Assembly: GCA_919901565.1 (NCBI GenBank)
Contig: CAKKPE010000035.1
Location: 6,396-70,395, forward strand
Direction of reading: 5' to 3'
Length of the DNA: 64,000 bases
Source of the DNA: a bacterium
GTDB lineage: Bacteria; CG2-30-53-67
Of the stretch, positions 18,171 through 45,414 are shown in pieces. Positions within the stretch are counted from its first letter, which is position 1. Each line of letters opens with the position of its first letter. The notes under the pieces were generated by a model that ran no database searches, was not told the origin of the DNA, and saw only the letters and a list, made by a program, of their open reading frames with translations. A program made the position numbers and the translations under genes.

Positions 18171-18187
18171 TATGCGGATAGAAAGAA

Positions 18188-28011: not shown

Positions 28012-29058
28012 TCAGAACAGCGTCGGGTGATCCTCGTCTTTGTCTGACGGAGATGAAGGCGCTTCGAGCCCGCCGGGCTCCGCATCGTCTCTCCCGGCCC
28101 CCTGCCCGTCTTCCGTCGCAAAACCCTTGAAGACAAACTGCCCCAGACGCTTATGATACGCACTCCACCGTTCATCCCCCTGAGAACCCTCCATCATCCC
28201 GCGGAAGGCCTGCGTCTTGGCATCCAGGTCATCCATCATATTCAGGATCAGGGCCTCCAGGATCATGGGCTTCACAGGAGACCCGAACTCCTCTTTGCCG
28301 TGATGGGAGAGTAGCAGGTGCTTGAGAAGGATCGCCTTCTCGTCCGGGAATCCGGGTATGGCGCGGATGCATTCCGAGACCTGTTCCAGTTCCAATGCGA
28401 TATGGCCGATAAGGCGCCCCCGGTCCGTGTATCCCAAGTTCCTGGAATACTCAAGCTCATCCACCTTTCCGATATCGTGCAGGAGCACCCCGGCAAACAG
28501 CAGGTCCCGGTCCACCTCCGGGAAACGGGGCGCCACATCCTCACAGAGACGGAACACGGAGAGGGTATGCTCCAGAAGGCCGCCCAGATAGGCATGGTGC
28601 ATGGCCTTGGCCGCAGGGGCCGTGGAAAATTTCTCCTTGAACGCGGGGGCCTGGAAGATCATCAAAAGAAGTTTCGCGAGGTGCGGGTCCTTGACCTTGC
28701 GGATGCAGGCCGAGAGTTCGGCCGCCATTTCATCGGCCCCCCTTTTGGAGGAGGGGAGGAAATCCCTGGGATTGATGTCGGCCCCCTCCACCCGTTTGAC
28801 CGACTGGAGGGTCAGTTGAAGCTTCCCGTTGTATTCGTTCACCTGCCCCGCTGCCTTCACAAAATCACCCGTGGAGCATTCCTTAGAGGCCTTCTCCGCC
28901 CCCTCCCAGACCTTGGCCTCCATCTCTCCGGACCGGTCTCCCAGCTTCAGGGTCAAAAACGTTTTCCCCGCCCGGGTCGTCCCGATACTCTTGCTCCGGA
29001 CAAGATAGATCCCCTCCACAGCCTTCCCTTCCCGCATCTCGGAAATCAGGATTCCCAT
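28012..29058 (-). CDS. OB-fold + HD domain protein (YhaM-like 3'-5' exoribonuclease family)
   Basis: 348 aa. N-terminal OB-fold segment, central HD motif (HHAYLGGLLEHT...LLHDIGK) and a C-terminal acidic tail. Confidence 0.6.
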   Translation of the reverse strand: MGILISEMREGKAVEGIYLVRSKSIGTTRAGKTFLTLKLGDRSGEMEAKVWEGAEKASKECSTGDFVKAAGQVNEYNGKLQLTLQSVKRVEGADINPRDFLPSSKRGADEMAAELSACIRKVKDPHLAKLLLMIFQAPAFKEKFSTAPAAKAMHHAYLGGLLEHTLSVFRLCEDVAPRFPEVDRDLLFAGVLLHDIGKVDELEYSRNLGYTDRGRLIGHIALELEQVSECIRAIPGFPDEKAILLKHLLLSHHGKEEFGSPVKPMILEALILNMMDDLDAKTQAFRGMMEGSQGDERWSAYHKRLGQFVFKGFATEDGQGAGRDDAEPGGLEAPSSPSDKDEDHPTLF

Positions 29059-29405
29059 GAAATAGTCCCTCCTAAAAAACCATTCAAACCATTTTGTTTT
29101 TTCGTACTATACCTTTTTCATGCCGCAAGATCAACCCCGTTAGAAGCCCCCATATTTCCACCAGAATCCGCCAACAAAATCTGTGAACCACAGAGCACAC
29201 AGATGATTTTCTCTGCGTTCTCAAAACGATTGATAAAATAAGGCAAACTTAATCTTTCAGAAAAGAGTGCACAGAGATGAGGAACTTGTTTAATGTTTTA
29301 TCTCTATTATCCATCAGTTATTCTGTGCCCTCTGTGGTTTGATGGTGAATTTGGGTTCCACTTTTCCCCTTGACACCGTTTCCTCTTTGTTATTAGATTA
29401 CCTGC

Positions 29406-30434
29406 ATGGAGGATTCTCTCGTGAACGCAGGCCAGATCGAAAGACAATGGGGGATTATCAACACCCTCTGCCGGCGAAGCAGAACCACCCTTGATGAACT
29501 GGCCGAAGAATATGAAGTCTCCAAACGGACCATCCTGCGTGACTTGGACAAACTCAGCCTGATCTTTCCTCTCGTAGACAAGAAAGAAGGGAGACACAAA
29601 TACTGGTCCCTGATCGACGGCTACAAGGACGTCCCCCCCATCACCTTCCTTCCCACCGAGTTTTACGCCATCCAGGAAGGCACACGATTTCTCAAGGCCC
29701 TGGGCGATCCCTTTCTCAGGCCCACCTTAGAGTCTATCAGCCACAAAATCAGGGCCACCTTTGATCAGAGCAGGATCGAATCCTTCGAGAACCTCCGAAA
29801 AATCTTTTCAATCAACCTGAGCGCGGCTAAAGACTACTCCGGCAAGAGAGGTTTTTTGAGTCAGATCTTTTCGGCCGCAGCCGAACAGCGCCGTGTGGAG
29901 ATCGGCTACCAGGGCCTCAAAGATACTAAACCTCTGGTCAGAAAAGTTGACCCCTACAAACTCTGGTACCGGGACGGCACAGTCTATCTTGTGGGGCTAT
30001 GTCATCTGAGAAACAAGATCCGCATGTTCGCCGTGGACAGGATCACCCTCTTGAACCTTACGGATGATAACTTCCTGACCCCTGAAAACTTCGACTTCAA
30101 CGAATATATTGAACACGCCTTCAGCGTCATGATCGAAGACCCCATTCACGTCAAGGTAAGATTCAACCCCGAAATTGCCCGCTACATCGAAGAGCGTGAG
30201 TGGCATCCGAGCCAGAAGATAAAGAAATACAAGGACGGCTCGCTCCTCATGGAACTGACCGTGGGCGGGACATTGGAGATCAAACGGTGGATCTTAAGCT
30301 TCGGCTCCCAGGCCGAGGTCATCGAACCGGAAGCGCTCGTTGAGGAACTCCGGGCAGATCTGGAGAGAATGAGGCAGGTCTATAGTTTGGACAGTTCAAA
30401 CCGTTCAAGCAGTTTAAACCGGTCAAGTAGTTGA
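29406..30434 (+). CDS. WYL domain-containing transcriptional regulator (HTH + WYL)
   Basis: N-terminal HTH (TTLDELAEEYEVSKRTILRDLDKL) and WYL motif (KLWYRDGTVYLVGLCHLRNKIRMFAVDRI). The last ~17 codons are encoded by the tandem-repeat array E, so the native C-terminus is uncertain. Confidence 0.8.
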   Translation: MEDSLVNAGQIERQWGIINTLCRRSRTTLDELAEEYEVSKRTILRDLDKLSLIFPLVDKKEGRHKYWSLIDGYKDVPPITFLPTEFYAIQEGTRFLKALGDPFLRPTLESISHKIRATFDQSRIESFENLRKIFSINLSAAKDYSGKRGFLSQIFSAAAEQRRVEIGYQGLKDTKPLVRKVDPYKLWYRDGTVYLVGLCHLRNKIRMFAVDRITLLNLTDDNFLTPENFDFNEYIEHAFSVMIEDPIHVKVRFNPEIARYIEEREWHPSQKIKKYKDGSLLMELTVGGTLEIKRWILSFGSQAEVIEPEALVEELRADLERMRQVYSLDSSNRSSSLNRSSS

Positions 30435-30600
30435 AACGCCTGAACTCTTAAACAGCTTAAACCCTTTGAACGGTTTGAATCAAAGGTTTTGAACTTGAAC
30501 TGTTTAAACAATTTGAACCACTTGAACTTTTTGAACCAAATGTTTTTTTTTGAACGGTCCATTCTCTTTGAACGACTTGAACCCTTTGAACCAGAGGTTC
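30386..30600. repeat. degenerate 9-10-bp tandem repeat array (GTTCAAAC/GTTTGAAC/GTTTAAAC units), locus E
   Basis: About 20 units with the unit orientation alternating. Overlaps the WYL 3' end and runs up to the four-helix-bundle gene start. Confidence 0.8.
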
Positions 30601-30605
30601 TTAAA

Positions 30606-31067
30606 ATGACTGTCAAGTACTTCGAAGATCTCGAAATCTGGCAACGAGCGAGAGATCTGACAAACAAAATCTACCGACTCACCAGCAACGGCAAATTCGC
30701 CAAGGACTACGGCCTTCGAGACCAGATCCGGCGGGCAGCGGTTTCCGTCATGTCCAACATCGCCGAAGGCTATGAGCGGGGAGGCAACCAAGAGCTGATC
30801 CAGTTTCTCTCCATTGCCAAAGGCTCCTGCGGAGAAGTGAGATGCCAACTGCATATAGCCGGTGACCAAGGCTATGCGGAAACAAAAGAAACCGCTCACC
30901 TCATCGATTCATTCAAAAAGCTCTCCGTCATGATCCACAATTTTATGGACTATATCAAAAAAAGCCCCTACAAAGGCGCCAAGTACAAACAGCCGAAACA
31001 AAAAAGCATGAAAGAAAAACTCGATGAGATCCTAAAAGACCATGGAATGGATAATAACAAGGTTTGA
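30606..31067 (+). CDS. four helix bundle protein (TIGR02436 family; '23S rRNA intervening sequence protein')
   Basis: [22 protein letters not shown]...[41 protein letters not shown] matches the family consensus. Flanked on both sides by tandem-repeat arrays. Confidence 0.85.
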
Positions 31068-31312
31068 ACCATTTGATCTTTTTGATCTTTTTGAACCCCT
31101 TGAACTATTTGAACTTTTTGACCCCTTTGAACAAAATATTTTATCTTGAACGATTTGAACTTATTGAACAAAATCTCTTATCTTGAACCCTTTGAACCAA
31201 AAGGTTTTATCTTGAACCCTTTGAACTATTTGAACTTTTTGACCTCTTTGAACCAAATGTTTTATCTTGAACGGTTTGATCTTATTGAACAAAATGTCTT
31301 AACCTTGAACAT
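31068..31312. repeat. tandem repeat array (TTGAAC-core units) with a ~105-bp higher-order duplication, locus F
   Basis: Units such as ctttgaacc / atttgaact / cttgaacg. The segment ~31075-31195 is repeated at ~31205-31310. Confidence 0.8.
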
Positions 31313-31400
31313 TTTCTTAATACTTGACATAATCTGTCCACTATCAGCAGTATACTCATCCACGTTAACTCCGCCCCTTTCCCCGCAGTGGGAGACCAGG

Positions 31401-31440
31401 GTGAGGGCCAGCCCCGTTAGACAAGAACTGTCTAACGGGG
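31401..31440. repeat. 50-bp repeat containing an 11-bp-stem hairpin (CCCCGTTAGAC-N-GTCTAACGGGG), copy H1
   Basis: About 90% identical over ~50 bp to 32866-32914 (copy H2, inside the 3' end of the ORF6N gene). Confidence 0.7.
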
Positions 31441-31444
31441 TGAG

Positions 31445-31545
31445 GGGGGAAACAGAACTGGATCCTTGCACTCAGGAGAAAGGTTTAATAGGAGATCATG
31501 ACGACCAAACCCGACCCCATCGCCCACGTAACTGAAGACGGACGA
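31445..31545 (+). repeat. ~101-bp direct repeat copy R-A (promoter/RBS plus first 17 codons of a cas3-like gene)
   Basis: About 94% identical to 34868-34969. Encodes the mini-ORF MTTKPDPIAHVTEDGRTHS (31499-31558) immediately before the RBS of the pRiA4b-ORF3-like gene. Confidence 0.8.
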
Positions 31546-31575
31546 ACTCATTCGTAAAATAAAAAAGGAGAAACC

Positions 31576-32142
31576 ATGCCAAAACGTATCAATAAGAAAC
31601 CTGTTGTATATCAGTTGAAAGTGACCTTGAAGAATTCCAAGCCGCCGATATGGAGAAGGATTCAGGTCGCCAGTGATACGAGTCTGGAGAAGCTTCATTG
31701 GATACTTCAGAGCGTCATGGGCTGGACGAATTCGCATCTTCATCAGTTCAAGGTGGGGCGAGAGTACTATGGCGAACCCTCCCCGGACTATGATTTCGAT
31801 GTCGAGGATGAACGGAAAATAACACTTGCTGAAGCGGCGCCCGGATTAAAGAAGAAGTTTATCTATGAATACGACCTCGGCGACGGATGGGAGCACGAGG
31901 TACTCGTGGAAAAGGTTCTGGAGCCCGAGCCCGGTGTGCGCTATCCTTTCTGCGCCGATGGCCTACGCGCCTGTCCGCCGGAGGATTGCGGAGGAATCTG
32001 GGGCTATGAGGAATTCCTGGAAGCTATTCGTGATCCGAAGCACCCTGAGCACGATGAGATGCTGGAATGGATCGGCGGGAAATTTGATTCTGAACAATTC
32101 CATCTGGAGTATGTTAATCAGGAATTGAAGCGCTTGAAGTGA
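31576..32142 (+). CDS. plasmid pRiA4b ORF-3-like family protein (PF07929-like)
   Basis: YQLKVTLKNSKPPIWRRIQVASDTSLEKLHWILQSVMGWTNSHLHQF...YEYDLGDGWEHEV matches the family signature. Confidence 0.85.
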   Translation: MPKRINKKPVVYQLKVTLKNSKPPIWRRIQVASDTSLEKLHWILQSVMGWTNSHLHQFKVGREYYGEPSPDYDFDVEDERKITLAEAAPGLKKKFIYEYDLGDGWEHEVLVEKVLEPEPGVRYPFCADGLRACPPEDCGGIWGYEEFLEAIRDPKHPEHDEMLEWIGGKFDSEQFHLEYVNQELKRLK

Positions 32143-32255
32143 ACTATCGAACGCACCGCGCAGTTAGCCTCGGAATTCGACTTCGCCGGGTGGGGAAGGC
32201 TGGCCGGGATGGCATGATATTGCCTGTCAACAAATGATGTCAACAGGAGGGACGC

Positions 32256-32885
32256 ATGAAGGGACTCATTCCACAGGACGTGATTGAGCGGAAAATCTAC
32301 TTGATTCGAGGGCAGAGGGTCATGTTAAGTATGGACCTATCCGAACTTTACGGAGTAACAACAAAACGACTGAACGAACAGGTGAAGCGCAACAAGGGCC
32401 GATTTCCTGGGGATTTCATGTTTCAGCTTACGTCTGAAGAAAAAGCAGAGGTGGTCGCAAATTGCGACCACCTCTCGAAGCTCAAGTTTGCTTCGGTCCT
32501 CCCCTATGCTTTTACTGAGCACGGCGCGATCATGGTCGCCAGTGTTCTTAATACCAAACGGGCCATTGATGTAAGCATCTATGTAGTCCGAGCATTCGTA
32601 AAACTTCGTGGAATACTCTCGACGAATAAAGAGTTTGCACAGAAATTAGCCGAGTTAGAGACAAAACTCGAATCCCATGACGGAGCAATTCGTACCCTGG
32701 TCAGAGCCATCCGCCAACTCATGGCGGAGCCGGAGCCGCCAAGAAAAAGAATCGGATTCCAGGCCAAAGAAGGCAGCGTCAGGTACAGAAGATCGGCTTC
32801 GACGGTTTCTTCTCATCGCCGATGGAAAGCGAGTCAGCCTCGCGTCCCCTCGCCCCCTAAAGGGGGTGAGTGCCAGCCCCGTTAG
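32256..32885 (+). CDS. ORF6N domain-containing protein (KilA-N-related DNA-binding)
   Basis: IYLIRGQRVMLSMDLSELYGVTTKRLNEQVKRNKGRFPGDFMFQLTSEE is the ORF6N signature. The C-terminal tail runs into hairpin repeat H2. Confidence 0.8.
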   Translation: MKGLIPQDVIERKIYLIRGQRVMLSMDLSELYGVTTKRLNEQVKRNKGRFPGDFMFQLTSEEKAEVVANCDHLSKLKFASVLPYAFTEHGAIMVASVLNTKRAIDVSIYVVRAFVKLRGILSTNKEFAQKLAELETKLESHDGAIRTLVRAIRQLMAEPEPPRKRIGFQAKEGSVRYRRSASTVSSHRRWKASQPRVPSPPKGGECQPR

Positions 32886-33254
32886 ACAAGAACGGTCTAA
32901 CGGGGAGAGGGGGCATGGCCGAGCAGAGCAGCCATTGAAGCATTGGAAGTGAACAACGGTGAGGGTGATGCGATGAGTAATGAACTGGTCGGATGGGATG
33001 ACGGCAAGATCTACTTTTACGATAGGAACGGAACAGAGTTTTGCGTGAACGATCACCCTGATCTCTTGCAAAAGATGGTCGAGATATGTGCCGGATATTT
33101 TATGCGGGGTGAAGACTGAGGTCATATGGGCACTGAGAATCCTTTGGCACACTTTGAAGCCGACGGCATTTGCTGACGGAGCACCGGACTGATACCGCCG
33201 AACGGGCTGCACGGTTTTCTGTCAAAGACTGGAAAGAAAAAGCAGAGGTGTGAA

Positions 33255-34607
33255 ATGAGTCACGATGAAATCGGAGTGTTGCTCGGAAAGGGCGAATCCG
33301 AGAAAATAGAGTTTAAGGAAAAATTCGACAGAGAAGCTATCGAAACCGCGGCTGCGTTTGCCAACACGAAAGGCGGAGTGATTCTTATCGGGTTTTCGGA
33401 TAAAGGAAGAGTCAAAGGCATTCAAATCGGAAAAGAGACGCTCAAAGACTGGGCAAATCAGATTTCTCAGTGCACGGAGCCCAGCATCGTACCGGAAATC
33501 AAACAGGCCGAAATAGAGGGTAAGGATGTTGTGATGATATGGATCAAAGAAGTCCCTATTAAGCCTGTATCCGTGAGAGGCAGATGCCTCAGGAGGGTGG
33601 GAAACAGCAACCGGATAATGACGCCGAACGAAGTTGCCCAAGTGCATCTCGCCACCACCGGCACGAGCTGGGACAAGCTTCCGGCAAAAGATGCTTCTGT
33701 TGATGCCATAGATCTTGCGAAGGTCAAGCGATATGTCAACAAGGCAAACCAATCCGGCAGGAGAAAGATCGGTAATGATGAGACGCCTCTGCAGGTTCTC
33801 GAAAAGCTCGATCTGATAAAAGACGGACAAGCCACCTGGGCGGCAATCCTTCTCTTTCGCAAGGACGGCAAGCGTTTCCTCTCCCAGACAGCGGTACACT
33901 GCGGCAGATTCAAGGAAGAGACCATCGTTATCGATGACAGGATGATCGAAGGCACCATCATAGAGCAGATAGACGATGCAATGGATTTCATCCGCAAAAA
34001 CATCAACGTTCGTTTTGTCATGACCGGAAGGCCCGCAAGAGAGGAAATATGGGACTATCCCATCGAAGCGCTGAGAGAGGCTTTGATCAACGCGGTCTGC
34101 CATCGAGATTATACCATTCCATCGAACACCGAAGTAAGGATATATGACGACAGGTTGATTGTGTGGAATCCGGGAGGACTCCCTCTCGGGATAACCATGG
34201 ATGACCTTTACAAGCCCCATCCCTCTGTGCTCAGGAACAAGGGTATAGGGGAGATATTCTATGACGTAGGCCTCATTGAACAGTGGGGCAGCGGAATAGA
34301 CAAGATGCGAAGTGCCTGCCTGAAATCAGGACTTCCTGAGCCGCAGTTTGAAGAGTATCAGGGATTCAGGGTGATCTTCAGAAAAGACGTCTATACAGAA
34401 GAATATCTCCGCAACCTTGGCTTGAATGAAAGGCAGATCAAGGCAGTGATGTATGTAAAGGAGAAAGGGAAGATTACGAACAAGGAGTATCGTGAAATAA
34501 CCGGGCTTTCTGATGAGGGAGTCAGGATAGACGTGAATGGGCTAATTGGAAAAGGGGTATTATTGTCAAAAGGTAGAGGCAGGAACGTTCATTATGTTCT
34601 TAAGTAA
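33255..34607 (+). CDS. AlbA_2 (Schlafen-like) + HATPase_c_4 + C-terminal HTH ATP-binding protein (putative DNA-binding / defence-associated)
   Basis: N-terminal ESEKIEFKEKFDREAIETAAAFANTKGGVILIGF (AlbA_2). Central ALREALINAVCHRDYTIPSNTEVRIYDDRLIVWNPGG (HATPase_c_4, RecG C-terminal-like). C-terminal wHTH-like region. Confidence 0.8.
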   Translation: MSHDEIGVLLGKGESEKIEFKEKFDREAIETAAAFANTKGGVILIGFSDKGRVKGIQIGKETLKDWANQISQCTEPSIVPEIKQAEIEGKDVVMIWIKEVPIKPVSVRGRCLRRVGNSNRIMTPNEVAQVHLATTGTSWDKLPAKDASVDAIDLAKVKRYVNKANQSGRRKIGNDETPLQVLEKLDLIKDGQATWAAILLFRKDGKRFLSQTAVHCGRFKEETIVIDDRMIEGTIIEQIDDAMDFIRKNINVRFVMTGRPAREEIWDYPIEALREALINAVCHRDYTIPSNTEVRIYDDRLIVWNPGGLPLGITMDDLYKPHPSVLRNKGIGEIFYDVGLIEQWGSGIDKMRSACLKSGLPEPQFEEYQGFRVIFRKDVYTEEYLRNLGLNERQIKAVMYVKEKGKITNKEYREITGLSDEGVRIDVNGLIGKGVLLSKGRGRNVHYVLK

Positions 34608-34867
34608 CTTGGCGATTGGTTGGCATCTACTTGGCGATTATGGCGATTATCTGGCGGTTGGCTAATCGAGCCAAAGGGGCGCCCATGGGGCAATGCTTCA
34701 TATCTGGTGGGCAAGGCACCCACTTGCCTCTTCGAAAAATCGTATTGGGCATAAGGAATTATGATTCTAAGCGAGAAGGAACATAAGAACTTGAGGTCGC
34801 ATTTTGTGACCTTAAAGCGGGGGCGTGGGCAGCACCGGAAGTATCTCCCACTGGCCTTTACCGAATA

Positions 34868-34969
34868 GGGGGGAAACAGAACTGGACCCTTGCACTCAGG
34901 AAAAAGGTTGAACAGGAGATTCATGACGACCAAACCCGACCCCATCGCCCACGTAACCGAAGACGGACG
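34868..34969 (+). repeat. ~101-bp direct repeat copy R-B (native context: 5' region of truncated cas3)
   Basis: Pairs with R-A at 31445-31545. Six mismatches and one indel. Confidence 0.8.
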
Positions 34970-35084
34970 CGTGCATCCGCTCCGGGATCACCTGAACGGA
35001 ACATCTGAGATGGCTGCGAAATTCGCTTTTGACTTTGGCTGTACCGAGTGGAGACGGCTGGCGGGGCTGTGGAGTTGGAATTGA
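34923..35084 (+). pseudogene. cas3: cas3 N-terminal remnant (HD-domain start, ~50 codons, truncated before the HD motif)
   Basis: MTTKPDPIAHVTEDGRVHPLRDHLNGTSEMAAKFAFDFGCTEWRRLAGLW follows the Cas3 N-terminal pattern (HL..V...A..FA..FG...W..LAGLWHDxGK) and stops where HD(L/I)GK should be. It lies directly upstream of cas5c, which is the canonical I-C cas3 position. Confidence 0.55.
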
Positions 35085-35114
35085 TGTGAACAAACGGGGG
35101 AGAAAGGAGCGTAT

Positions 35115-35750
35115 ATGCAAACCTACTCAATTCAAATGGAGGTATCCGGTCCCACGGCTATGTGGACACGCCCAGACACGGGTGACTCGCCGGTGAGTTA
35201 TCCTGTACCGACGTATTCAGCGGCAAAAGGTCTGTTTGAGGCGGTTGTCAGGATTGAGACAGTGGAGATCGTACCGGTCAAGGTGGAAATTTGTAAGCCG
35301 ATCGTTTTCCACAACTACGCGACCAATTACGGGGGGCCATTACGGAAAACAGCAATTATGCCACACAGTAGTTATCAGTTGCTGGCAACAACTCTGATCA
35401 ATGTGTGCTACCGGCTTTATGCGGAGATAAAACCGGCGCGATTTGCCGGGACGTTATCCGAAAAAGCGCGTTTGCAGGCAAGTAAAGGACTCAATGCGCT
35501 GCACGCCTGCCAGGATATGTTCAACCGCCGCTTGAAAAAAGGGCAGTGGCATGATACGCCTTTCCTTGGCTGGCGTGAATTTGTACCAGACTATATCGGG
35601 CCATTTCGGGAGGGTACGCAGATACAGGAAGATATTTCACTCGACCTGCCAAGTTTTCTTTTTTCTGTGTTTGAACCATCAGGGAGCAAACAACCAGTTT
35701 ACAAGCCTGATGCTAAAGTGAGAAACGGAGGGCTTGTCTATGCTGAATGA
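35115..35750 (+). CDS. cas5: type I-C CRISPR-associated protein Cas5c (Cas5d)
   Basis: 211 aa. MQTYSIQMEVSGPTAMWTRPDTGDSPVSYPVPTYSAAKGLFEAVV is the Cas5 Dvulg-type N-terminus. No cas6 in the locus. Confidence 0.85.
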   Translation: MQTYSIQMEVSGPTAMWTRPDTGDSPVSYPVPTYSAAKGLFEAVVRIETVEIVPVKVEICKPIVFHNYATNYGGPLRKTAIMPHSSYQLLATTLINVCYRLYAEIKPARFAGTLSEKARLQASKGLNALHACQDMFNRRLKKGQWHDTPFLGWREFVPDYIGPFREGTQIQEDISLDLPSFLFSVFEPSGSKQPVYKPDAKVRNGGLVYAE

Positions 35751-37797
35751 GCTTCGTGAACTATCGATATGCCTGGAAAAAGCAGGAATAAACCCTCCGG
35801 ACTATCACCCCAAGTTTACTTTATGTCCAAAGAGAACAGCTTGCTCTGTATACTTGGATAAAGATGGAAATATCTCAAGCATCAGCTCGATGGCCATTGA
35901 TCAGGTACAGACAGTTCGAAAATGGGATGGTGTCGGATCATATGGGGTTTCCTTTCCGTCGGTTAACTTGCCACCATTGTTGAAAGTGACTGATGACGAA
36001 TGCAAAAAGAAATTAATCACCATGAAAAAAAGCAGCAACATGTCGCGAGATGAAATTCAAAAAATTGTCACCTGTTCCACAAATCTGTGGCTGGATAACT
36101 TGGGTAAGAAGACAAATGCATTCGATAAAATCAACGAATGTCTTGATAAACCAGTAAACGACTTGTTTGCAAAACTTACTGATGTCCCTGATGAGTTTTC
36201 GTCAATTACTGAACTTCTTGCGAGAGCGAAAAAAATTGATTCAAAGAGATTCCATGGTCAATTGTATGGCGAGTTGATTAAGAATATTGAAGAAGGCAAG
36301 TCATGGCCAATAGATGTGTTGTTTTACTATAGTGGCGCAAAACCATTAGACTTTCAGATTGTTTTCGAAATTAGTGATTGGAAACAATTCCCTGCAAATC
36401 ATCCGGAAGTTCAAAAATGGATGAACTCAAAACTGCTGTCATCAACGACAACGAAAGTTTCTGCGGAAGTAGACGCGTTTGGCTGTAATGCTTCCGGGAA
36501 TGACGAGAAATTTCCAGATGTCGGTTTTAAAAACGCACTTGGTAATGTAAAGCTTCGGGCCATGACCAAAGACTCTCCTTGTCAGATGCGATACGGAATG
36601 ATTGAGCACGAATCTTTTTCTGTCGGGAATGATGTGCGGAAAGAAATGAAGCGTGCACTGGAATGGCTTGGAGACGACGATCGTAAAGGGAAAACATGGT
36701 GTGACCTCAGCCGTAGGATGGAACGACCGATGCTATTATTTGCCTATCCAACCCAAATTCCAGATAGTTTGCCTGACTTGGCTGGCATAATGGGAGATGC
36801 GGAAGACGAATTAGCTGAAATAGGGCAAGCGCGGTTTGCTGCGCTCGCTGAGAGAGTAACGGTTGCCTTGCGGGGTAGGACAAAGGAAACGGTAGATTCC
36901 GGGGTTCGTGTATTTGTTCTTGCGAAAAGACCGGGCGACGCGCGCACCAAGGTACTGGCGAGCAGGCGATATTCTGCCGATCATGTTATTCATGCGGCTC
37001 AGCTTTGGCAGGAGGGCAGCAGGAATGGTCCTACAATCAAGATACGGAGTTTCGGAAAAAACAAGGGTGATACGCCAGTTTGGATTGAAACGCTGATACC
37101 ATTTCCGGCAGAGGCGGTTTGGTGTCTGAATACGGTTTGGTCCCGTCAGGGCACCCGTGCGGAAGGGGCGCACGGATTCTCCGTCAATGATGCATTAATT
37201 CTGCTGCTGGGGGATGGTCACGAACTCCACCAGGTTGCCACAAGGGCGCTGAACGTAGCCCTTCGCAACAGTTTACCGTTGTTTCTGGCGCTTGGACAGG
37301 CAAATGCACAAGGGCTTGTGCATATGATCGATAAAAAATACACGAAGAAATATGAGAAACAAAAATTGTTGCTCCCGTCAATTATAAGTTTGAGCTTACA
37401 TAAACTGGGACACACGAAAGGAGAAATTATGACATCCTCTGCTTTTCTGGTCGGCAGGTTACTAAACCTCGCCGACAGTCTGCACCTCGAATACTGCAAA
37501 GGACCGCGTAAAGGGTCCGTTCCGCCGCAGCTAGTTGGCAATGCGCTTATGGCAACTGCTCTTGAAACTCCTGAAAAAGCCCTTTCAATGCTATCTCAGA
37601 GGGTTTTGCCCTATCAGGCATGGGCACGAACAGTGAAGGAGGGCGATAGGGTGGGCCTGGTAAAAACTTTTCTTAAGCAGCTTAGCGAGGTATCAGAGCA
37701 GTTGAAGGAAGCCCCATTGCCGCAGCGGTCCAGTGATACAGATAAAGCACAGATGCTGCTCGGGTATCTTGCCCGCGTAGAATCAGAAAAGAATTAA
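35734..37797 (+). CDS. cas8c: type I-C CRISPR-associated protein Cas8c (Csd1), large subunit
   Basis: 687 aa. 17-nt overlap with cas5c. Position and size match Csd1. Called mostly by synteny. Confidence 0.7.
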   Translation: MSMLNELRELSICLEKAGINPPDYHPKFTLCPKRTACSVYLDKDGNISSISSMAIDQVQTVRKWDGVGSYGVSFPSVNLPPLLKVTDDECKKKLITMKKSSNMSRDEIQKIVTCSTNLWLDNLGKKTNAFDKINECLDKPVNDLFAKLTDVPDEFSSITELLARAKKIDSKRFHGQLYGELIKNIEEGKSWPIDVLFYYSGAKPLDFQIVFEISDWKQFPANHPEVQKWMNSKLLSSTTTKVSAEVDAFGCNASGNDEKFPDVGFKNALGNVKLRAMTKDSPCQMRYGMIEHESFSVGNDVRKEMKRALEWLGDDDRKGKTWCDLSRRMERPMLLFAYPTQIPDSLPDLAGIMGDAEDELAEIGQARFAALAERVTVALRGRTKETVDSGVRVFVLAKRPGDARTKVLASRRYSADHVIHAAQLWQEGSRNGPTIKIRSFGKNKGDTPVWIETLIPFPAEAVWCLNTVWSRQGTRAEGAHGFSVNDALILLLGDGHELHQVATRALNVALRNSLPLFLALGQANAQGLVHMIDKKYTKKYEKQKLLLPSIISLSLHKLGHTKGEIMTSSAFLVGRLLNLADSLHLEYCKGPRKGSVPPQLVGNALMATALETPEKALSMLSQRVLPYQAWARTVKEGDRVGLVKTFLKQLSEVSEQLKEAPLPQRSSDTDKAQMLLGYLARVESEKN
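37429..37797 (+). CDS. candidate Cas11c small subunit from an internal in-frame start within cas8c
   Basis: AAAGGAGAAATT-ATG at 37429, in frame, yields 122 aa (MTSSAFLVGRLLNL...). Internal translation of a Cas11 from the I-C cas8c 3' end is a published mechanism. Confidence 0.45.
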   Translation: MTSSAFLVGRLLNLADSLHLEYCKGPRKGSVPPQLVGNALMATALETPEKALSMLSQRVLPYQAWARTVKEGDRVGLVKTFLKQLSEVSEQLKEAPLPQRSSDTDKAQMLLGYLARVESEKN

Positions 37798-37828
37798 ACC
37801 AACACATTTAAGGAAAAGGAGACAGACC

Positions 37829-38689
37829 ATGTCAAACGAAGCTAAAAAGATCATGCGCGCAACTGGCCTTCTCGTCATCGAGGCCATCAATTCCAACCCC
37901 AACGGCGACCCAGATCGCGAGAGCGATCCTCGCCAGCGTCCCGATAGACTGGGGGAAATTTCACCGGTGTCATTCAAACGGAAACTGCGAGACCTTGTAG
38001 AGGATAAAGAGGGGCCAGTCTGGAAGGAACTCAAGCAGCATCTTGGTCTTGCTGACGGGGAGTTTGAAGTCCTTGAATCACGTGGACGCGATCGGGGTAA
38101 GATCAAGAAAGAGCTTGAAGACAACGGCAAGATTTTCAAACAGAAATACTGGGATGCCAGGATTTTCGGCAATACCTTTCTTGAAGAGGGAGCAGCCAAT
38201 ACCATTAAAACCGGCGTTGTGCAATTTGGCATGGGGCTTTCGGTAGCACCAATCATCATCGAGCGCCACACGAACACTAACAAGGCCGGTGTCGAGGGGG
38301 ACAAGGATCGTGGCATGGCGCCAATGGCCTACCGTATCGTCCAGCATGGCATCTATTGCATGCCGTTTTTTGTGAATCCCAGTGCGGCGCACAAATCTGG
38401 GTGTACGGCAAAAGATATTGAATTACTGTTGGCCTTGATCCCCCACGCTTATGCCCATTCACGCTCATATGTGCGGCCAAACGTAGAGATCCTGAATGCT
38501 TGGTACATGGAGCACAAATCGGCAATCGGCTCTTGCTCGGATTTCAAGCTGATTGACTCGCTCACGCCGACGAAACTGGAACATTCGGATAGTGCATCAA
38601 ACAACAGGAAAGAGTATGACATTCCGTCTACTCTTCCTGCCGAGCTTCAGGGGAAAGTCGCTCCTTTGAAAGACCTGATGGAGTTCTAA
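37829..38689 (+). CDS. cas7: type I-C CRISPR-associated protein Cas7c (Csd2)
   Basis: 286 aa. ...LLVIEAINSNPNGDPDRESDPRQ...KRKLRD matches the Csd2 N-terminal signature. Confidence 0.85.
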   Translation: MSNEAKKIMRATGLLVIEAINSNPNGDPDRESDPRQRPDRLGEISPVSFKRKLRDLVEDKEGPVWKELKQHLGLADGEFEVLESRGRDRGKIKKELEDNGKIFKQKYWDARIFGNTFLEEGAANTIKTGVVQFGMGLSVAPIIIERHTNTNKAGVEGDKDRGMAPMAYRIVQHGIYCMPFFVNPSAAHKSGCTAKDIELLLALIPHAYAHSRSYVRPNVEILNAWYMEHKSAIGSCSDFKLIDSLTPTKLEHSDSASNNRKEYDIPSTLPAELQGKVAPLKDLMEF

Positions 38690-40891
38690 ATGAGCGAATA
38701 TCTCGCCCATAGCGCCAAGGACGGCATAGCGGAACAGACATATAGGCAGCATGTCTCGGAAGTCCTACGCATGGCGCGCGAGTATGCGAAGAGGGCGGCG
38801 GCGTATTCTCCGCTTGGCCCGCTTTTGCTGGCGGCTGTGGAGTACGCCGCTGCATACCATGATCTGGGAAAACTGGACGATGACAATCAGACTGTGCTGC
38901 GAACTGGCAGCAAGGGAAGCTTGCCGGTGAAGCATTGGGATGCGGGGACGGCTTATCTTCTGACCGACTCGAAGCGGTGGGCAAATCTTATTGGTGCCTT
39001 TCTGGTAGCTTGCCATCACAAAGGCTTGCTTTCGTTGCCGGATGAACAGGTCAGAGGACCTGATATGTTTCGTGAGGCTTCGGCTAAAGGCAGCACCGCT
39101 CTCGGCCTGTCCGGTTATCTTGCTGTTCATGCAGCAGAGATTGGTGTTGGCGTTTCAGAACAGGATTGGAAGGGCAAAGCCGCAACACCGCTCTTCATGC
39201 GTATGGCACTGTCATGCCTCGTAGATGCAGATCACACCGACACTGCGCGGCATTATGGAAATGTCGTACCCGAAGGCGATATGCCGCTTGCAGCCGAACA
39301 GCGGCTTCTGGCGCTCGACCAATATGTTGACGGTCTGACAACTGACGACAATAGCAGGAAGGAACGAGATGAAGTCCGGCGACAGGTATATGATGCATGC
39401 CGAACTGCCCAACCGAACGAAGGCGGCATGATTGCCTGTGACAGCCCGGTCGGAACTGGCAAGACAACAGCTGTCATGGCTCATCTTCTAAAGGCTGCAA
39501 AGGAGAAAGGTCTGCGGCGCGTGTTTGTTGTATTGCCGTTCACCAACATAATTGACCAGTCAGTTGATGTCTACCGCAAGGCGCTGGTACTGGATGGCGA
39601 AGAGTCGGAAAGAGTAGTTGCTGCTCACCACCACAAGGCAGAATTTGAAGAGGAGGCGAACCGAGCATTTTCCTTTCTTTGGAATGCGCCGATAACCGTC
39701 ACGACTGCCGTACAGTTCTTTGAGACCCTTGCAAGCAAACACCCCGCAACGCTTCGTAAGCTACATCAGTTGGCTGGTTCAGCCATTTTCATCGATGAAG
39801 CCCACGCAGCATTGCCCGCACATCTCTGGCCACAGGCCTGGAAATGGCTCCAGGAACTCGTGAAAGATTGGGGCTGTTATATCGTCATGGCTTCCGGTTC
39901 CCTTACGCGCTTTTGGGAGTTTGAGGAGTTTTCGGCACCACCGGCTCGGCTTGCAGAACTGGTCAGTCTTGATGTGCGTTCGTCGGCAATGCATACCGAA
40001 ACATCAAGAATCACCTACAGAATCAAAAACGAGGCGCATTCTCTCACGGATTTGTGTGACTGGATAGTCCAATTGCCGGGACCGCGTCTTGTTATCCTTA
40101 ACACTGTTCAGTCGGCTGCGGCAGTGGCCAGGGAGCTTGCCGGAGCAGAGCAGAAGAACAGGCAAAAGGTTGAACACCTATCAACAGCGCTGGCCCCGAT
40201 TGATCGCAAGGGAGTCCTGGAAAGGGTAAAAAAACGTCTGGGTGATAAGAATGACACCGATTGGACGCTGGTTGCTACCTCATGCGTTGAGGCGGGAGTT
40301 GATTTATCATTCCAGTCCGCAGCCCGCGAAATGTGCAGTCTGGTCAGCACCATTCAGACAGCCGGTCGTGTGAATCGTTCGGGAGAGTTCGGAACCTGCG
40401 AGCTGTGGAGTTTCAGGATTAAGGCAAGTGAACTCCTCAGAGAACATCCCGCGTTCACTGTTTCTTCAAGAATACTTGCGGACCTCTATGAGAAGGGGCA
40501 CGTTTCTCCCTATTACTGTAAAGAGGCCATGAGACGGGAGGTAAGAGACCGCAACAGGGGACGTTGTGAGGATGACCCAATTGTAAAGGCTGAGAAAAAA
40601 CGGGAATTCCCCGAGGTTGATGAGAAATTTAAGGTCATCGATTCAAACACGATTACTGTTGTTGTGGATGATGATTTGCGCCAACGCCTTGAGCGTCGTG
40701 AAAGAGTTGAACCGTTTGAATTGCAGCAAAAAAGCATCAATATTTACTCGTCAAAGGAAAGGACGTATGGCGTAGCGCCAATTCATGGGTTTGAAAAACT
40801 ATACCGTTGGACCCTGAAATATGACGACTTTCTTGGCTATATGGCTGGTGTGCTCCCCTTGACGAACTTTGCTGATAATTGCTGCATTTGA
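38690..40891 (+). CDS. cas3: CRISPR-associated helicase/nuclease Cas3 (HD + SF2 helicase)
   Basis: 733 aa. HD motifs (YHDLGK; LVDADHTDT). Helicase motifs I (DSPVGTGKT), II (FIDEAHA), V-like (SCVEAGVDLSF) and VI (QTAGRVNRSG). Its ATG directly abuts the cas7 stop. Confidence 0.9.
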   Translation: MSEYLAHSAKDGIAEQTYRQHVSEVLRMAREYAKRAAAYSPLGPLLLAAVEYAAAYHDLGKLDDDNQTVLRTGSKGSLPVKHWDAGTAYLLTDSKRWANLIGAFLVACHHKGLLSLPDEQVRGPDMFREASAKGSTALGLSGYLAVHAAEIGVGVSEQDWKGKAATPLFMRMALSCLVDADHTDTARHYGNVVPEGDMPLAAEQRLLALDQYVDGLTTDDNSRKERDEVRRQVYDACRTAQPNEGGMIACDSPVGTGKTTAVMAHLLKAAKEKGLRRVFVVLPFTNIIDQSVDVYRKALVLDGEESERVVAAHHHKAEFEEEANRAFSFLWNAPITVTTAVQFFETLASKHPATLRKLHQLAGSAIFIDEAHAALPAHLWPQAWKWLQELVKDWGCYIVMASGSLTRFWEFEEFSAPPARLAELVSLDVRSSAMHTETSRITYRIKNEAHSLTDLCDWIVQLPGPRLVILNTVQSAAAVARELAGAEQKNRQKVEHLSTALAPIDRKGVLERVKKRLGDKNDTDWTLVATSCVEAGVDLSFQSAAREMCSLVSTIQTAGRVNRSGEFGTCELWSFRIKASELLREHPAFTVSSRILADLYEKGHVSPYYCKEAMRREVRDRNRGRCEDDPIVKAEKKREFPEVDEKFKVIDSNTITVVVDDDLRQRLERRERVEPFELQQKSINIYSSKERTYGVAPIHGFEKLYRWTLKYDDFLGYMAGVLPLTNFADNCCI

Positions 40892-40900
40892 GAAAAGGCT

Positions 40901-41530
40901 ATGGACAATCAAGAGCCGATCATGATTTCCGCTCTGAATCATTACCTCTACTGCCCGCGGCGTTGCGGGCTGGTGCACGTTGAACAGGTCTGGAGTGAGA
41001 ACCTGTACACCATGCGCGGGCGCGACATGCATGAGAATGTTCACGAAGACTCCTCGCATTCTTTGGCTGGTGTACGATATGAACGAGCTCTTCCGATTTG
41101 GTCAAAGCGGCTGCATCTGGTCGGCAAGGCAGATTTGGTAGAGTTTCATGGAGAAATTCCATATCCTGTTGAGTATAAATCGGGAAGACATAAAACATTT
41201 CAGAATGATTACGTTCAGCTCTGCGCACAGGCCATGTGTCTTGAAGAGATGCTGGGGGTGAAGGTGGAGAAGGGCGCTCTTTACTGGCACGGGTCACGGG
41301 AACGGAAAGAGGTAGTCTTCACCGATGAGCTGCGGGGTCGGGTAGAGGAGGTGGCTGCCGAAGTCCATGCCATGATCGCGGAGAAGCGGCTTCCGCCGCC
41401 GGTGAACGACGGGAGGTGCGAAGATTGTTCTTTGAAGGATTCCTGCATGCCGGGAGCGATTGCCAACAAAGGAATGAGAAAGAAGGCGGAAATGGAGTTG
41501 TTTACAATGCCTCATAGGACGGAGGAATAG
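40901..41530 (+). CDS. cas4: CRISPR-associated exonuclease Cas4 (RecB-like, Fe-S)
   Basis: 209 aa. N-terminal Cys (YLYCPRRCGL) and C-terminal CEDCSLKDSC give the 4-Cys cluster. PD-(D/E)xK-like core. Confidence 0.85.
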   Translation: MDNQEPIMISALNHYLYCPRRCGLVHVEQVWSENLYTMRGRDMHENVHEDSSHSLAGVRYERALPIWSKRLHLVGKADLVEFHGEIPYPVEYKSGRHKTFQNDYVQLCAQAMCLEEMLGVKVEKGALYWHGSRERKEVVFTDELRGRVEEVAAEVHAMIAEKRLPPPVNDGRCEDCSLKDSCMPGAIANKGMRKKAEMELFTMPHRTEE

Positions 41531-41532
41531 GA

Positions 41533-42360
41533 ATGGGAAAAAGCATCGCGGTTTTCAAGGGGAAGGAAATCAGGAGAACGCTGTACAAGAACGAGTGGTG
41601 GTTTTCTGTCTCTGATGTTGTAGAAGCGTTAACCGATAGCGCTGATCCAAAGCAGTATATCAAGAAAATAAGACAGCGGGATACAGAGCTTAATTCCTAC
41701 TGGGGTACAATTTGTACCCCCCTTGAAATTATGGCGCCGGACGGGAAAACGCGTGAGACAAACTGCGCAAATACCGAGGGTGTTTTTCGCATCATCCAGT
41801 CCATTCCTTCTCCCAAGGCGGAGCCCTTCAAACGTTGGCTCGCCAAAGTCGGCTATGAGCGGGTGCAGGAGATTGAAGACCCGGAACTCGGTTCGAAGAG
41901 GACGCGGGCGCTCTATAAGGCCAAGGGCTACTCCGACGACTGGATCGAGAAGCGGATGAGGGGTATCGCCATCAGGGAAGAGCTTACGGATGAATGGAAA
42001 AAGCGGGACGTGCGAGAGAAAAGGGAATATGAGATCCTTACCGCGGAAATTGCCAAGGCTGCTTTCGGCATTACGCCTGGGAAACACAAGAAGATCAAAG
42101 GTCTGAAGCGTGAAAACCTGCGGGACCATATGAACGACCTTGAGCTGATCTTCTCGATGCTCGGCGAGGCGGCGACGACCGAGATTACGCGGGTTGATGA
42201 TGCCAAGGGATTTCATGAAAGCAAACATGCTGCTCGCAAGGGCGGAGAAGTTGCCGGAAAGGCGCGAAAAGACCTTGAACAAAAAACCGGGAAACGAGTA
42301 GTGTCGCGCGAAAACTACCTGACGACATCAGAAAGCCGGAAGAAGATCGAGAGGAAGTAA
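41533..42360 (+). CDS. Bro-N domain protein (DNA-damage-inducible protein D / phage antirepressor-like)
   Basis: FKGKEIRRTLYKNEWWFSVSDVVEALT...GVFRIIQSIPSPKAEPFKRWLAKVGYERVQE matches the Bro-N consensus. Starts 2 bp after the cas4 stop. Confidence 0.7.
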   Translation: MGKSIAVFKGKEIRRTLYKNEWWFSVSDVVEALTDSADPKQYIKKIRQRDTELNSYWGTICTPLEIMAPDGKTRETNCANTEGVFRIIQSIPSPKAEPFKRWLAKVGYERVQEIEDPELGSKRTRALYKAKGYSDDWIEKRMRGIAIREELTDEWKKRDVREKREYEILTAEIAKAAFGITPGKHKKIKGLKRENLRDHMNDLELIFSMLGEAATTEITRVDDAKGFHESKHAARKGGEVAGKARKDLEQKTGKRVVSRENYLTTSESRKKIERK

Positions 42361-42412
42361 TGCCGTCATGAATGAACTAATTTTTCATCAGGATCATTGA
42401 GGAGTTTCCTTT

Positions 42413-43555: not shown

Positions 43556-43669
43556 ATACGGAAGTGAAGTCGTGACACTATGTCACGGGTTCTCCATATA
43601 TTCAATTCCTTCTCCGTGCGCTCTGTGGTAAAACTTGACAATACTGAAAAAGCTGAAGGGTGATGATAT

Positions 43670-44728: not shown

Positions 44729-44762
44729 ACCCATACTTCCTCCACTAATGCATGATGGAAAG

Positions 44763-45149
44763 TTACCACTCCGCCCTGATGGGATATTTTGTTATGCGAG
44801 GATCGGGCGTGAGGATGACCAGTCCTCCGGCAATTGCTTGGCAGATGAGAATTCTGTCGAAGGGGTCCTTGTGATAATCCGGGAGTCGGGAAAGCTGCAA
44901 TACCGCCGCTTCGTCCAGCGGCAATGAATCGATATCATGGCGGGTGCGCCACTTCTTGATGAATTCGTGGGGAGTGCCCGGGAGCGGCAACTTGCCCAGC
45001 TTGTGTTTGACGATGATCTCCCATGCGGAGGCAACGCTCAGGTAGACCTCATTGGCGGGATCAGAAAAAAGCCGACGGGCAGTGTCGGACAACTCGGGAC
45101 CTCCCGACACGATCCAAAGAAACGTGCAGGTGTCCAGAAGGATGTTCAC
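44763..45149 (-). CDS. vapC: type II toxin-antitoxin system VapC family toxin (PIN domain)
   Basis: 128 aa. MNILLDTCTFLWIV... PIN-domain acidic residues (D6, E, D). 4-nt overlap with the upstream antitoxin gene. Confidence 0.8.
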   Translation of the reverse strand: MNILLDTCTFLWIVSGGPELSDTARRLFSDPANEVYLSVASAWEIIVKHKLGKLPLPGTPHEFIKKWRTRHDIDSLPLDEAAVLQLSRLPDYHKDPFDRILICQAIAGGLVILTPDPRITKYPIRAEW

Positions 45150-45397
45150 GATTCGGCACCGCCAAACATCGCGAGCATGTCCTCCGGCAACTCCTCGAAG
45201 AACGAGGCAGGCACTGTAAATTTGCCTTTGGACAAGCCTATGGGACGCGGCTTATTCCGATGGGGAGCAAGGGGACGTATTTCAGCGACCGGCTGGTTCC
45301 GCCTGCACACGACGACGATTTCCCCATGCTCCACTTCTTCAAGGTAGTGTGAGAGATGGGTTTTTGCTTCATGAATATTGATTTTTTTCATGGTCAA
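45146..45397 (-). CDS. type II antitoxin (Phd/YefM-like)
   Basis: 83 aa. INIHEAKTHLSHYLEEVEHGEIVVVCRRNQPVAEIRPL matches the Phd/YefM fold pattern. Translationally coupled to vapC. Confidence 0.7.
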   Translation of the reverse strand: MTMKKINIHEAKTHLSHYLEEVEHGEIVVVCRRNQPVAEIRPLAPHRNKPRPIGLSKGKFTVPASFFEELPEDMLAMFGGAES

Positions 45398-45414
45398 ATA
45401 TTAAACCAAGTAGT

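Follow-up and report, generated by a model that had tools for sequence, protein, structure and literature searches.

We analysed a 64,000-nucleotide (nt) stretch of bacterial DNA (lineage Bacteria; CG2-30-53-67), hereafter the window, which corresponds to positions 6,396 to 70,395 of contig CAKKPE010000035.1 in assembly GCA_919901565.1. The subject of the analysis is a block of passenger genes lying upstream of cas5 in a CRISPR-Cas operon. An earlier interpretation made from the letters alone (the sequence-only reading) had described this block as a 3.3-kb unit bounded by direct repeats copied from the 5' region of cas3. A Hainich groundwater contig in ENA is 100% identical to the window. Related loci carry handles beginning with L, and L003, L014-L016 and L027-L036 represent one Nitrospirae population from Crystal Geyser that shares ~90% identity with the window to either side of the block.

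Architecture of the block upstream of cas5

The block contains two copies of a leader unit, each composed of a hairpin part (H) and a part that ends in the first codons of a decayed cas3 (R), together with several open reading frames (ORFs). Its features, all on the forward strand, are as follows.

31399-31544 (+): leader unit copy 1 (H1 and R-A), consisting of a GC-rich hairpin, a 5' untranslated region (5'-UTR), a ribosome-binding site (RBS) and 16 codons from the start of a cas3 stub
31399-31448 (+): H1, left part of leader copy 1
31412-31440 (+): H1 hairpin with a 12-bp stem and a 5-nt loop, from folding
31443-31544 (+): R-A, right part of leader copy 1
31498-31557 (+): mini-ORF of 19 codons (16 of the cas3 stub, then THS) and TAA, read from the sequence
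31576-32142 (+): ORF3, a PRiA4_ORF3-family gene (Pfam E 1.5e-71), apparently within an older cas3 stub
32143-32225 (+): cas3-like fragment (TIERTAQLASEFDFAGWGRLAGMA, then stop), the putative 3' half of stub #1, resembling codons ~23-49 of the cas3 N-terminus
32256-32885 (+): ORF6N (KilA-N-like) gene with its stop codon in the 5' arm of H2 (Pfam 6.7e-30; PADLOC PDC-S05 2.3e-55)
32864-32913 (+): H2, left part of leader copy 2, from alignment to H1
32914-34866 (+): 1,953-bp later insert splitting leader copy 2, from its junctions and from L015, which lacks it
32973-33119 (+): ORF of 48 amino acids (aa) without a family match
33255-34607 (+): gene for a SLFN_AlbA_2 and HATPase_c_4 protein (Pfam 2e-22 and 2.5e-23), hereafter the AlbA2 gene
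34761-34868 (+): truncated ORF6N-like fragment (..NLRSHFVTLKRGRGQHRKYLPLAFTE, then stop), cut off by R-B (Pfam ORF6N E = 4.3e-4)
34867-34969 (+): R-B, right part of leader copy 2, from alignment to R-A
34923-35084 (+): cas3 stub #2 of 53 codons, ending just before the HD motif, with homologous stubs in L004, L020 and L006

When we aligned the repeats, R-A and R-B were 94.2% identical over 103 columns with one 1-nt indel, and H1 and H2 matched at 47 of 50 positions (94%), which reproduces the ~94% identity and the ~50-bp hairpin repeats reported before. Each H carries a hairpin of the form CCCCGTTAGAC(A)...(T)GTCTAACGGGG with a perfect 11-12-bp stem, and the RNA fold of H1 has an energy of -25.6 kcal/mol (z = -4.2). 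H and R had been regarded as two separate repeats, but they are contiguous: since H1 and R-A overlap, they make up one segment of 146 nt (31399-31544). The left third of this unit corresponds to H2 and its right two thirds to R-B, and the two copies are ~91-94% identical, depending on how the indel in a run of G is scored. H and R are one leader unit in two copies, the second of which is split by the insert. A search for further copies of H or R in the 64-kb window returned none, and shuffled sequences gave an expectation of 0. Exact-pattern scans of viral contigs found neither H nor R, and no H was found among 42 loci from other lineages. A 10-bp inverted match between CAGTGGGAGA at 31387 and TCTCCCACTG at 34846, noticed by eye, was considered as a pair of terminal inverted repeats; it does not extend further and was treated as chance.

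The frame common to R-A and R-B comprises 16 codons, MTTKPDPIAHVTEDGR, instead of the 17 counted previously. As also read before, the mini-ORF of R-A stops after 19 codons, and the ATG of ORF3 (31576) follows 18 nt on, preceded by AAGGAG. Each leader copy would place an RBS, together with a short upstream ORF, immediately before the gene that follows. The origin of the repeated segment from the 5' end of a decayed cas3 is supported by the longer stub of L004 (87 aa), which matches TIGR01596 cas3_HD at 7e-14, above the cut-off. The domain assignments of the sequence-only reading for PRiA4_ORF3, ORF6N, SLFN_AlbA_2 and HATPase_c_4, and for the Bro-N protein further downstream, were all recovered with Pfam.

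A second cas3 remnant lies in frame behind the ORF3 stop (...LASEFDFAGWGRLAGMA, then stop). A tblastn search with the stub recovered its L015 ortholog (55.6% over 27 aa), and the fragment shares with stub #2 only a 20/26-nt local match. Since this cas3-like fragment follows ORF3 in both lineages, ORF3 appears to sit in an older, diverged cas3 stub, and R-A seems to occupy the place of the 5' half of stub #1. Within ORF6N there is a perfect 13-bp-stem palindrome, AGAGGTGGTCGCAATTTGCGACCACCTCT, at 32447-32475, which is also present in L015 at 9292-9320; Logan contigs break at this palindrome, and the terminator scan scores it as a minus-strand terminator.

The insert starts at the left junction ...GGGGAGAGGGGG/CATGG (32913/32914) and ends at the right junction ...CCGAAT/AGGGGGGAAAC (34866/34867), and AGGGGG is found at both. 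The truncated ORF6N-like match at its right edge covers profile positions 47-77 of 86 and lies below the gathering score. Because this gene is cut off at the edge, the insert is a fragment of another locus and not an intact element. The family of the AlbA2 protein numbers 2,961 proteins at E <= 1e-30, many of them 70-78% identical, from bacteria and archaea, and appears to be very widely transferred. None of its closest homologs (90%, 79% and 78%) points to a donor, as they either have unrelated surroundings or lie on very short contigs. The insert carries a run of TGGCGATT-like repeats of ~11 bp. Just past the AlbA2 stop and still inside the insert, five tandem units of ~10-11 bp like TTGGCGATT occupy 34609-34660 and are overlapped by two minus-strand promoter-like sites.

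The empty site and related loci

The Crystal Geyser population, including L015, contains, in this order, an HD/OB gene, a truncated WYL gene, ORF3, the cas3-like fragment and ORF6N; after these come GC-rich hairpins, one R only, the stub and cas5. The alignment of L015 skips from window position 32856 to 34869, the region downstream of its ORF6N leads straight into ...GAGAGGGGGAAAC..., and L016, L014, L003 and ten further contigs of the population also lack the AlbA2 segment. Since the population is without the 1,953-bp segment, it provides a clean empty site. This bears out the division of the block into two sub-cassettes, the second of which (the small ORF and the AlbA_2/HATPase_c_4 gene) is absent from a close relative. 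The sequence-only reading had proposed to look for an empty site with an intact cas3 and a single R; L015 does have a single R and lacks the AlbA2 segment, but it keeps ORF3-ORF6N, and all relatives already have cas3 reduced to a stub.

Between the window and L015, nucleotide identity of the ORF3-ORF6N block is 91.6%. The ORF3 ortholog of L015 is at the equivalent position (89% aa identity), and its ORF6N ortholog has 232 aa and extends beyond the point at which the window ORF6N stops. Since this pair is common to both lineages, it predates their split. The block did not arrive as one 3.3-kb unit, as had been supposed, and the AlbA2 segment is a later insertion. The 5'-UTR part of the leader gives R-A and R-B as 91% identical to each other, with each only 66-67% identical to the R of L015. 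As the two window copies are closer to each other than to the L015 copy, their present similarity arose after the split. It probably reflects gene conversion between stub 5' regions or a fresh copy, and not a scar left by the arrival of ORF3-ORF6N. In L015 the WYL gene is truncated to ~29 codons and H is missing. An 18-nt filler, GTTAGAGTCTACCAGCCG, at the deletion junction resembles a collapsed H; it is suggestive only and was not used as evidence.

Cargo before cas5 is flanked by local leader duplications in three loci besides the window. First, L004 has an 82-nt duplication of 91% identity around MNT-HEPN, in which the first copy begins 22 nt past the WYL stop and the second stops 20 nt short of the stub. 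Second, L020 has a duplication of 79-88 nt and 90% identity, with a partial third copy; the copies stand before a DEDDh exonuclease gene and before the stub, with toxin-antitoxin genes between them, and the contig is too short to reveal whether a WYL gene is present. Third, L017 has a 67-nt duplication of 72% identity that copies the start of the exonuclease gene after WYL. The recurrence rests on the window, L004, L020 and, more weakly, L017. The duplicated segments of the three relatives have no sequence in common with H or R, and the right-hand ends of the leader duplications vary, falling at about -20, at codon 2, at codon 16 or inside the exonuclease gene. In this small sample, the leader interval shows a tendency to duplicate where it holds cargo.

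Assembly of the block and alternative explanations

Based on the anatomy of the block, its empty site and the repeated occurrence of leader duplications in relatives, all of which are observed, we suggest with moderate confidence that the block is a stepwise mosaic of passenger genes in the 5' leader of a WYL-associated variant I-C-like cas operon, and not a single mobile cassette. We infer the following order of events and recombination mechanisms. First, an ancestral canonical cas3 in front of cas5 would have decayed to a short stub that was kept as the operon leader. Second, before the split from L015, two stubs would have existed, with the PRiA4_ORF3 gene inside the upstream stub and ORF6N behind it. 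Third, after the split, H and R of the window lineage would have been re-copied or homogenised by gene conversion, giving copies ~6% apart. Finally, the 1,953-bp fragment would have entered at the AGGGGG run by illegitimate, microhomology-type recombination, cutting the downstream copy into H2 and R-B. In a separate step, an IVP gene and TTGAAC arrays, described below, would have come between the WYL gene and its promoter.

Here, we need to consider several points that weigh against this stepwise mosaic. The junctions R-A/ORF3, AlbA2/R-B and R-B/cas5 are independently confirmed by Logan contigs from two other sequencing runs, which end exactly at the repeat copies. The H1/R-A junction, however, is seen in the window and the 100%-identical ENA contig only; it may come from one read set, and a strain-chimeric assembly at the repeat is possible. 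L015 has lost the region upstream of ORF3 and so cannot show whether the common ancestor had R-A. With two lineages, gene conversion, re-duplication and single-crossover insertion cannot be separated as the origin of the leader copies. The promoter and the co-transcription of the cargo with the cas genes, treated below, are predictions only. In addition, cargo flanked by leader duplications in four loci hints at a more specific process than chance rearrangement.

In the single-crossover route, a circular DNA carrying one H and R with ORF3-ORF6N may have integrated into a chromosomal H and R by one homologous (Campbell-type) crossover, which would have produced both repeats in one step, with the AlbA2 fragment following later. 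Such a crossover accounts exactly for the order [H-R]-ORF3-ORF6N-[H...R] and needs no recombinase gene, the 6% divergence of the repeats could equal the difference between donor and recipient, and similar leader duplications flank the cargo of L004 and L020. We nevertheless consider this route unlikely, because L015 has ORF3-ORF6N at the same site and its divergence of ~9-10% exceeds the 6% between the repeat copies. The R of L015 is also strongly different in its UTR part (66-67%), the cas3-like remnant that follows ORF3 suggests that an older stub was present there, and the donor must already have carried the leader.

For the repeats, the sequence-only reading had favoured duplication of an attachment (att) site by a site-specific integrase, or repeated homologous insertion at the cas3 5' end. 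Like the repeats of att-flanked integrase islands, those of the window are direct, ~100-150 nt long and ~94% identical, include a gene end and flank accessory genes. Unlike in such islands, neither an integrase nor a tRNA gene was found beside the block, and related loci have no fixed crossover point; the block was built in at least two steps, and one repeat copy is itself interrupted. When we tested all ORFs of the block and the large ORFs at 13-29 kb and 49-64 kb with Pfam, the first 13 kb being outside the scan, no integrase or transposase domain was found, in agreement with the earlier statement that the block holds no recombinase gene. The tested large ORFs are housekeeping genes only, and every block ORF is otherwise assigned or is the 48-aa ORF. 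The only tRNA gene lies at 12926, and neither an integrase nor a tRNA was found within about 18 kb on either side of the block. A blastn comparison of the block with phage and plasmid records gave no significant match, the single hit being one of 71 nt inside the AlbA2 gene. The duplications of the relatives differ from locus to locus in sequence and in boundaries, which argues against a fixed att site, and the att-site interpretation of the repeats is not supported.

The WYL-to-cas5 interval could instead be a platform on which cassettes accumulate, each captured defence or toxin-antitoxin module bringing or selecting a fresh leader copy (operator, 5'-UTR and cas3-stub start). It would resemble an integron array without a dedicated integrase and would work through a site-specific replication or repair process or an unlinked recombinase; we regard this as improbable. 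The genes of the block are, as in integron arrays, co-oriented, promoterless-looking and placed after one promoter, with an imperfect palindrome before or after each. The core consensus of integron attC sites is GTTRRRY and RYYYAAC, and GTTAGAC and GTCTAAC of H happen to fit it. However, H has GTTAGAC in the 5' arm and GTCTAAC in the 3' arm, so that its arm order is reversed (GTTRRRY first) against the attC layout R''-L''...L'-R', in which R'' at the 5' end is RYYYAAC. The stem is a perfect 11-12 bp without the extrahelical bases of attC, no attI and, in the ORFs scanned, no IntI was found, and the window has two near-identical sites, whereas attC sites differ between cassettes. The attC reading of these motifs was rejected for its wrong polarity and the missing integrase.

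We also considered H as a core site for a host tyrosine recombinase (dif/pdif-like), which would allow the H1-H2 module to be mobilised without a recombinase gene of its own. Xer/dif-type modules (IMEX, pdif) have two 11-bp arms around a 6-8-nt spacer, are bound by host XerC/D and recur at module boundaries; the 11-7-11 geometry of H (arm-spacer-arm) fits this, its two copies lie in direct orientation 1,465 bp apart, and a CCCCGTTAGA half-site occurs at 29135-29144. Against these similarities, H has two copies in 64 kb and none in other loci or viral contigs, L015, which has no H, carries this cargo at the equivalent position, no recombinase was found near H in the ORFs scanned, and the repeat runs ~100 nt past H into R, which a core site does not need. 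We regard the core-site explanation as very unlikely.

Least probable of all is that H and the following TGAGGGGGGAAAC form a degenerate CRISPR repeat (standalone or CreR-like) through which Cascade regulates the operon or the cargo; we give this almost no credence. The segment GGGTGAGGGGGGAAAC (31438-31453), directly after the stem-loop and on the cas strand, matches the repeat 3' end GGGTGAGGATTGAAAC at 13/16 positions and is the sole non-array match in the window, and such elements are known near cas3 and cargo genes (bioRxiv 10.1101/2023.03.03.530964). However, 0.83 such matches are expected by chance, and the 13/16 match falls below the 16-bp threshold of the survey of repeat-like elements in that report. 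A second repeat-like element is missing at spacer distance, no partial target flanked by a protospacer-adjacent motif (PAM) was found for the 36 nt after GAAAC, and L015 has 5 extra bases in the 'handle'. The CreR or mini-array reading was rejected for its chance-level match and the missing PAM-flanked target.

Transcription, the CRISPR-Cas operon and its cargo

The stepwise mosaic that we favour lies in a larger island, whose further features are as follows.

29406-30434 (+): regulator with helix-turn-helix (HTH), WYL and WCX domains at the head of the CRISPR-cas island (Pfam WYL 5.7e-19, WCX 7.6e-24; PADLOC cas-associated WYL 4.5e-44)
30540-31067 (+): 23S_rRNA_IVP (four-helix-bundle) gene, the IVP gene (Pfam PF05635 1.1e-36)
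31305-31339 (+): predicted sigma-70 promoter TTGAAC-17-CATAAT with TG (31305-31333), overlapped by the palindrome TGACATAATCTGTCC (31325-31339), from a promoter scan
35115-46493 (+): variant I-C-like operon with cas5, cas8c, cas7, cas3 (733 aa), cas4, Bro-N, YhcG, RhuM and cas1, of which YhcG and RhuM are cargo
46976-48951: CRISPR array with 28 repeats

The island at 29000-49000 has a lower G+C content (0.44-0.53) than its flanks (0.53-0.60), and GC skew is nearly all positive from ~31 kb to 49 kb; both are consistent with a horizontally acquired, co-oriented block amid housekeeping genes.

A promoter-like region had been placed in R, with the conclusion that a copied cas3 promoter drives the cargo. 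However, the best sigma-70 site lies just upstream of H1, outside R, and the scan found no site inside R and predicted none in R-B. Given this position of the predicted promoter, a copied cas3 promoter is not supported, and R looks like a 5'-UTR, an RBS and a stub start. The palindrome overlapping the predicted promoter also stands, as GGACATGATCTGTCC, directly after the stop of a 78%-identical WYL gene in L047, and 31305-31339 is a candidate WYL-controlled promoter for the whole cargo and cas unit. With this promoter, both H and R would fall in the 5'-UTR. A terminator scan found no terminator-like site between genes on the + strand. Since all genes are co-oriented and no such terminator was found, we infer that the cargo is probably read through from the predicted promoter at 31305-31333 together with the cas genes.

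WYL regulators control defence operons (PMC9122601). Like WYL-regulated defence islands (BrxR/CapW-type), the window has a co-oriented HTH-WYL-WCX regulator at the 5' end, as do L004 and L017, and a palindrome overlapping the predicted promoter just downstream of the regulator. It differs in that control by its regulator is a prediction and in that the H hairpin was not found with WYL orthologs. The latter point bears on the idea that the duplicated leader carries the WYL operator and that its duplication was selected because it places cargo and cas genes under WYL control. Besides the known role of such regulators, it would fit that in L004 and L020 each duplicated segment holds a palindrome, which lies 50-90 nt ahead of where the stub begins, and that L015, with a WYL pseudogene, lacks H and has a strongly diverged UTR part of R. 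However, the WYL orthologs of L046 and L047 (74% and 78% identity) have no H-like site. A different palindrome, GGACATNATCTGTCC, is common to L047 and the window; in the window it overlaps the predicted -10 and stands upstream of H1, not within the repeat. R-B has no predicted promoter. Because H is absent beside two WYL orthologs and a different palindrome is conserved instead, the idea of H as operator was dropped. We regard selection of the duplication for WYL control as quite unlikely.

The IVP gene and the TTGAAC arrays lie between the WYL gene and its downstream palindrome and promoter, and we read them as a putative insertion. Arrays with a 9-bp period and the core TTGAAC/TTAAAC occur at 30385-30600, 31053-31300, 3037-3089, 19026-19123 and 20298-20330, and TTGAACNNNTTGAAC has 44 matches with 1 mismatch allowed, against 0.4 expected. 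Several arrays switch from one strand to the other, and in at least three places they lie between listed ORFs. The IVP gene has arrays on both sides, and the -35 of the predicted cas promoter comes from their last unit. The arrays probably represent a repeat family specific to this genome or an array to which a protein binds. In 28.5-36 kb, Rfam gave no match at E <= 0.1; a miRNA-family hit in a TTGAAC array (E = 0.11) is at chance level.

The operon itself resembles canonical type I-C in its matches to Csd-type Cas5c, Cas8c and Cas7, in a repeat that ends in ATTGAAAC, and in its cas3 5' stub, which sits at the position of cas3 in type I-C. However, the NCBIfam scores are all far below the cut-offs (Cas5c 47 against 85; Cas8c/Csd1 25.5 against 218; Cas7/Csd2 114 against 182), and the functional cas3 stands after cas7, in contrast to the canonical order cas3-cas5c-cas8c-cas7-cas4-cas1-cas2. 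Also unlike that system, many relatives have a small Zn-ribbon-like ORF before cas5 and several have Bro-N between cas4 and cas1. The locus would work like type I-C, yet appears to be a distinct variant. The basal operon of the family (L040-L045) is (small Zn-ribbon-like ORF)-cas5-cas8c-cas7-cas3-cas4-cas1-cas2, and the cas5 family numbers 2,146 homologs at E <= 1e-40.

Many relatives have, directly upstream of cas5 or overlapping it, an ORF of ~100 aa that contains two CxxC pairs and has no match in Pfam (L004 9657-9974; L005 9693-10004; L018 401-709; L037 3191-3487; decayed in L020 3602-3835). It is missing in the window and L015, where the cas3 stub abuts cas5. Hairpin repeats of the form GTAGGGGC...GCCCC, similar to repetitive extragenic palindromes (REP-like), occur upstream of cas5 in L020 (1619-2415 and 3147-3277) and L005 (9559-9681), and the L020 stretch includes a duplicated 3' end of a 202-aa ORF without a Pfam match. 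Comparison of the window with L004 gave identities of 95% for Cas5, 68% for Cas8c and 87% for Cas7, and nucleotide similarity begins abruptly 25 nt before cas5 (35090 onward). This pattern suggests that the cas genes may be mosaic, with recombination breakpoints at gene boundaries. The PADLOC Cas3c model of 1,009 positions is matched by the WYL regulator at 14-322 and by the 733-aa Cas3 (38690-40891) at 326-936, and WYL-Cas3 fusions appear to exist in related systems.

Cargo in this operon family varies at two sites, upstream of cas5, where cas3 stubs are found in the window, L015, L004, L020 and L006, and at the cas4/cas1 junction. The latter is empty in L040-L045 and holds Bro-N in L005 and L019, HEPN-MNT in L037, an IVP gene in L023, Bro-N with YhcG and RhuM in the window, and Bro-N with a RhuM fragment and PIN/Phd in L015. 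No repeats flank this site in the window, L015, L005, L019, L037, L017 or L023. The window carries intact YhcG (DUF1016/PDDEXK) and RhuM genes between Bro-N and cas1 (42413-44728), and L015 has at 17248-18283 the equivalent of only the first ~127 RhuM residues, followed by an oppositely oriented PIN/PhdYeFM pair. The interval from Bro-N to cas1 is a second site of cargo turnover, without flanking repeats. The Bro-N protein of ~275-293 aa (PADLOC PDC-S13 6.6e-118) is 66-84% identical across lineages and lies between cas4 and cas1 in the window (41533-42360), L005 (16421-17302), L019 (7060-7875) and L015 (16418-17233), with remnants in L017 (16440-16727). Bro-N had been named beside ORF6N as a KilA-N-superfamily protein of a class enriched in defence islands; its place as a recurrent member of this junction in several lineages suggests a link to the adaptation genes instead of random or local cargo. 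Among PADLOC candidate defence genes, ORF6N and RhuM fall in PDC-S05, Bro-N in PDC-S13 and YhcG in PDC-S02, and the AlbA_2 protein is placed near Argonaute-associated Schlafen-type domains; for the cargo, these defence placements are associations only.

Cargo in CRISPR-cas loci, including toxin-antitoxin pairs, WYL regulators and others, has been surveyed by Shmakov et al. (bioRxiv 10.1101/270033; 10.1101/2023.03.03.530964), and both embedded cargo and WYL-headed defence islands are already known. Like the embedded cargo of that survey, the window has non-cas genes of defence-island type inside and at the head of a cas operon with WYL upstream, and the cargo of its family varies between closely related loci. 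It differs in that its cargo upstream of cas5 is enclosed by duplicates of the leader that belongs to the operon itself, including the start of the cas3 stub, an arrangement of which a limited literature search found no description. The window adds a worked case, complete with an empty site, of the way in which such a region may grow: old stubs of a lost cas3 are reused as leader, the leader is duplicated or homogenised, and unrelated fragments are inserted at microhomologies. For now, the result clarifies usefully rather than surprises, and the recurrent leader duplication is the part worth following. If the recurrence holds in a larger sample, it would point to a specific route by which defence genes are joined to a CRISPR-Cas operon at the level of transcription, and leader duplication would be a simple sequence signature for finding such passengers.

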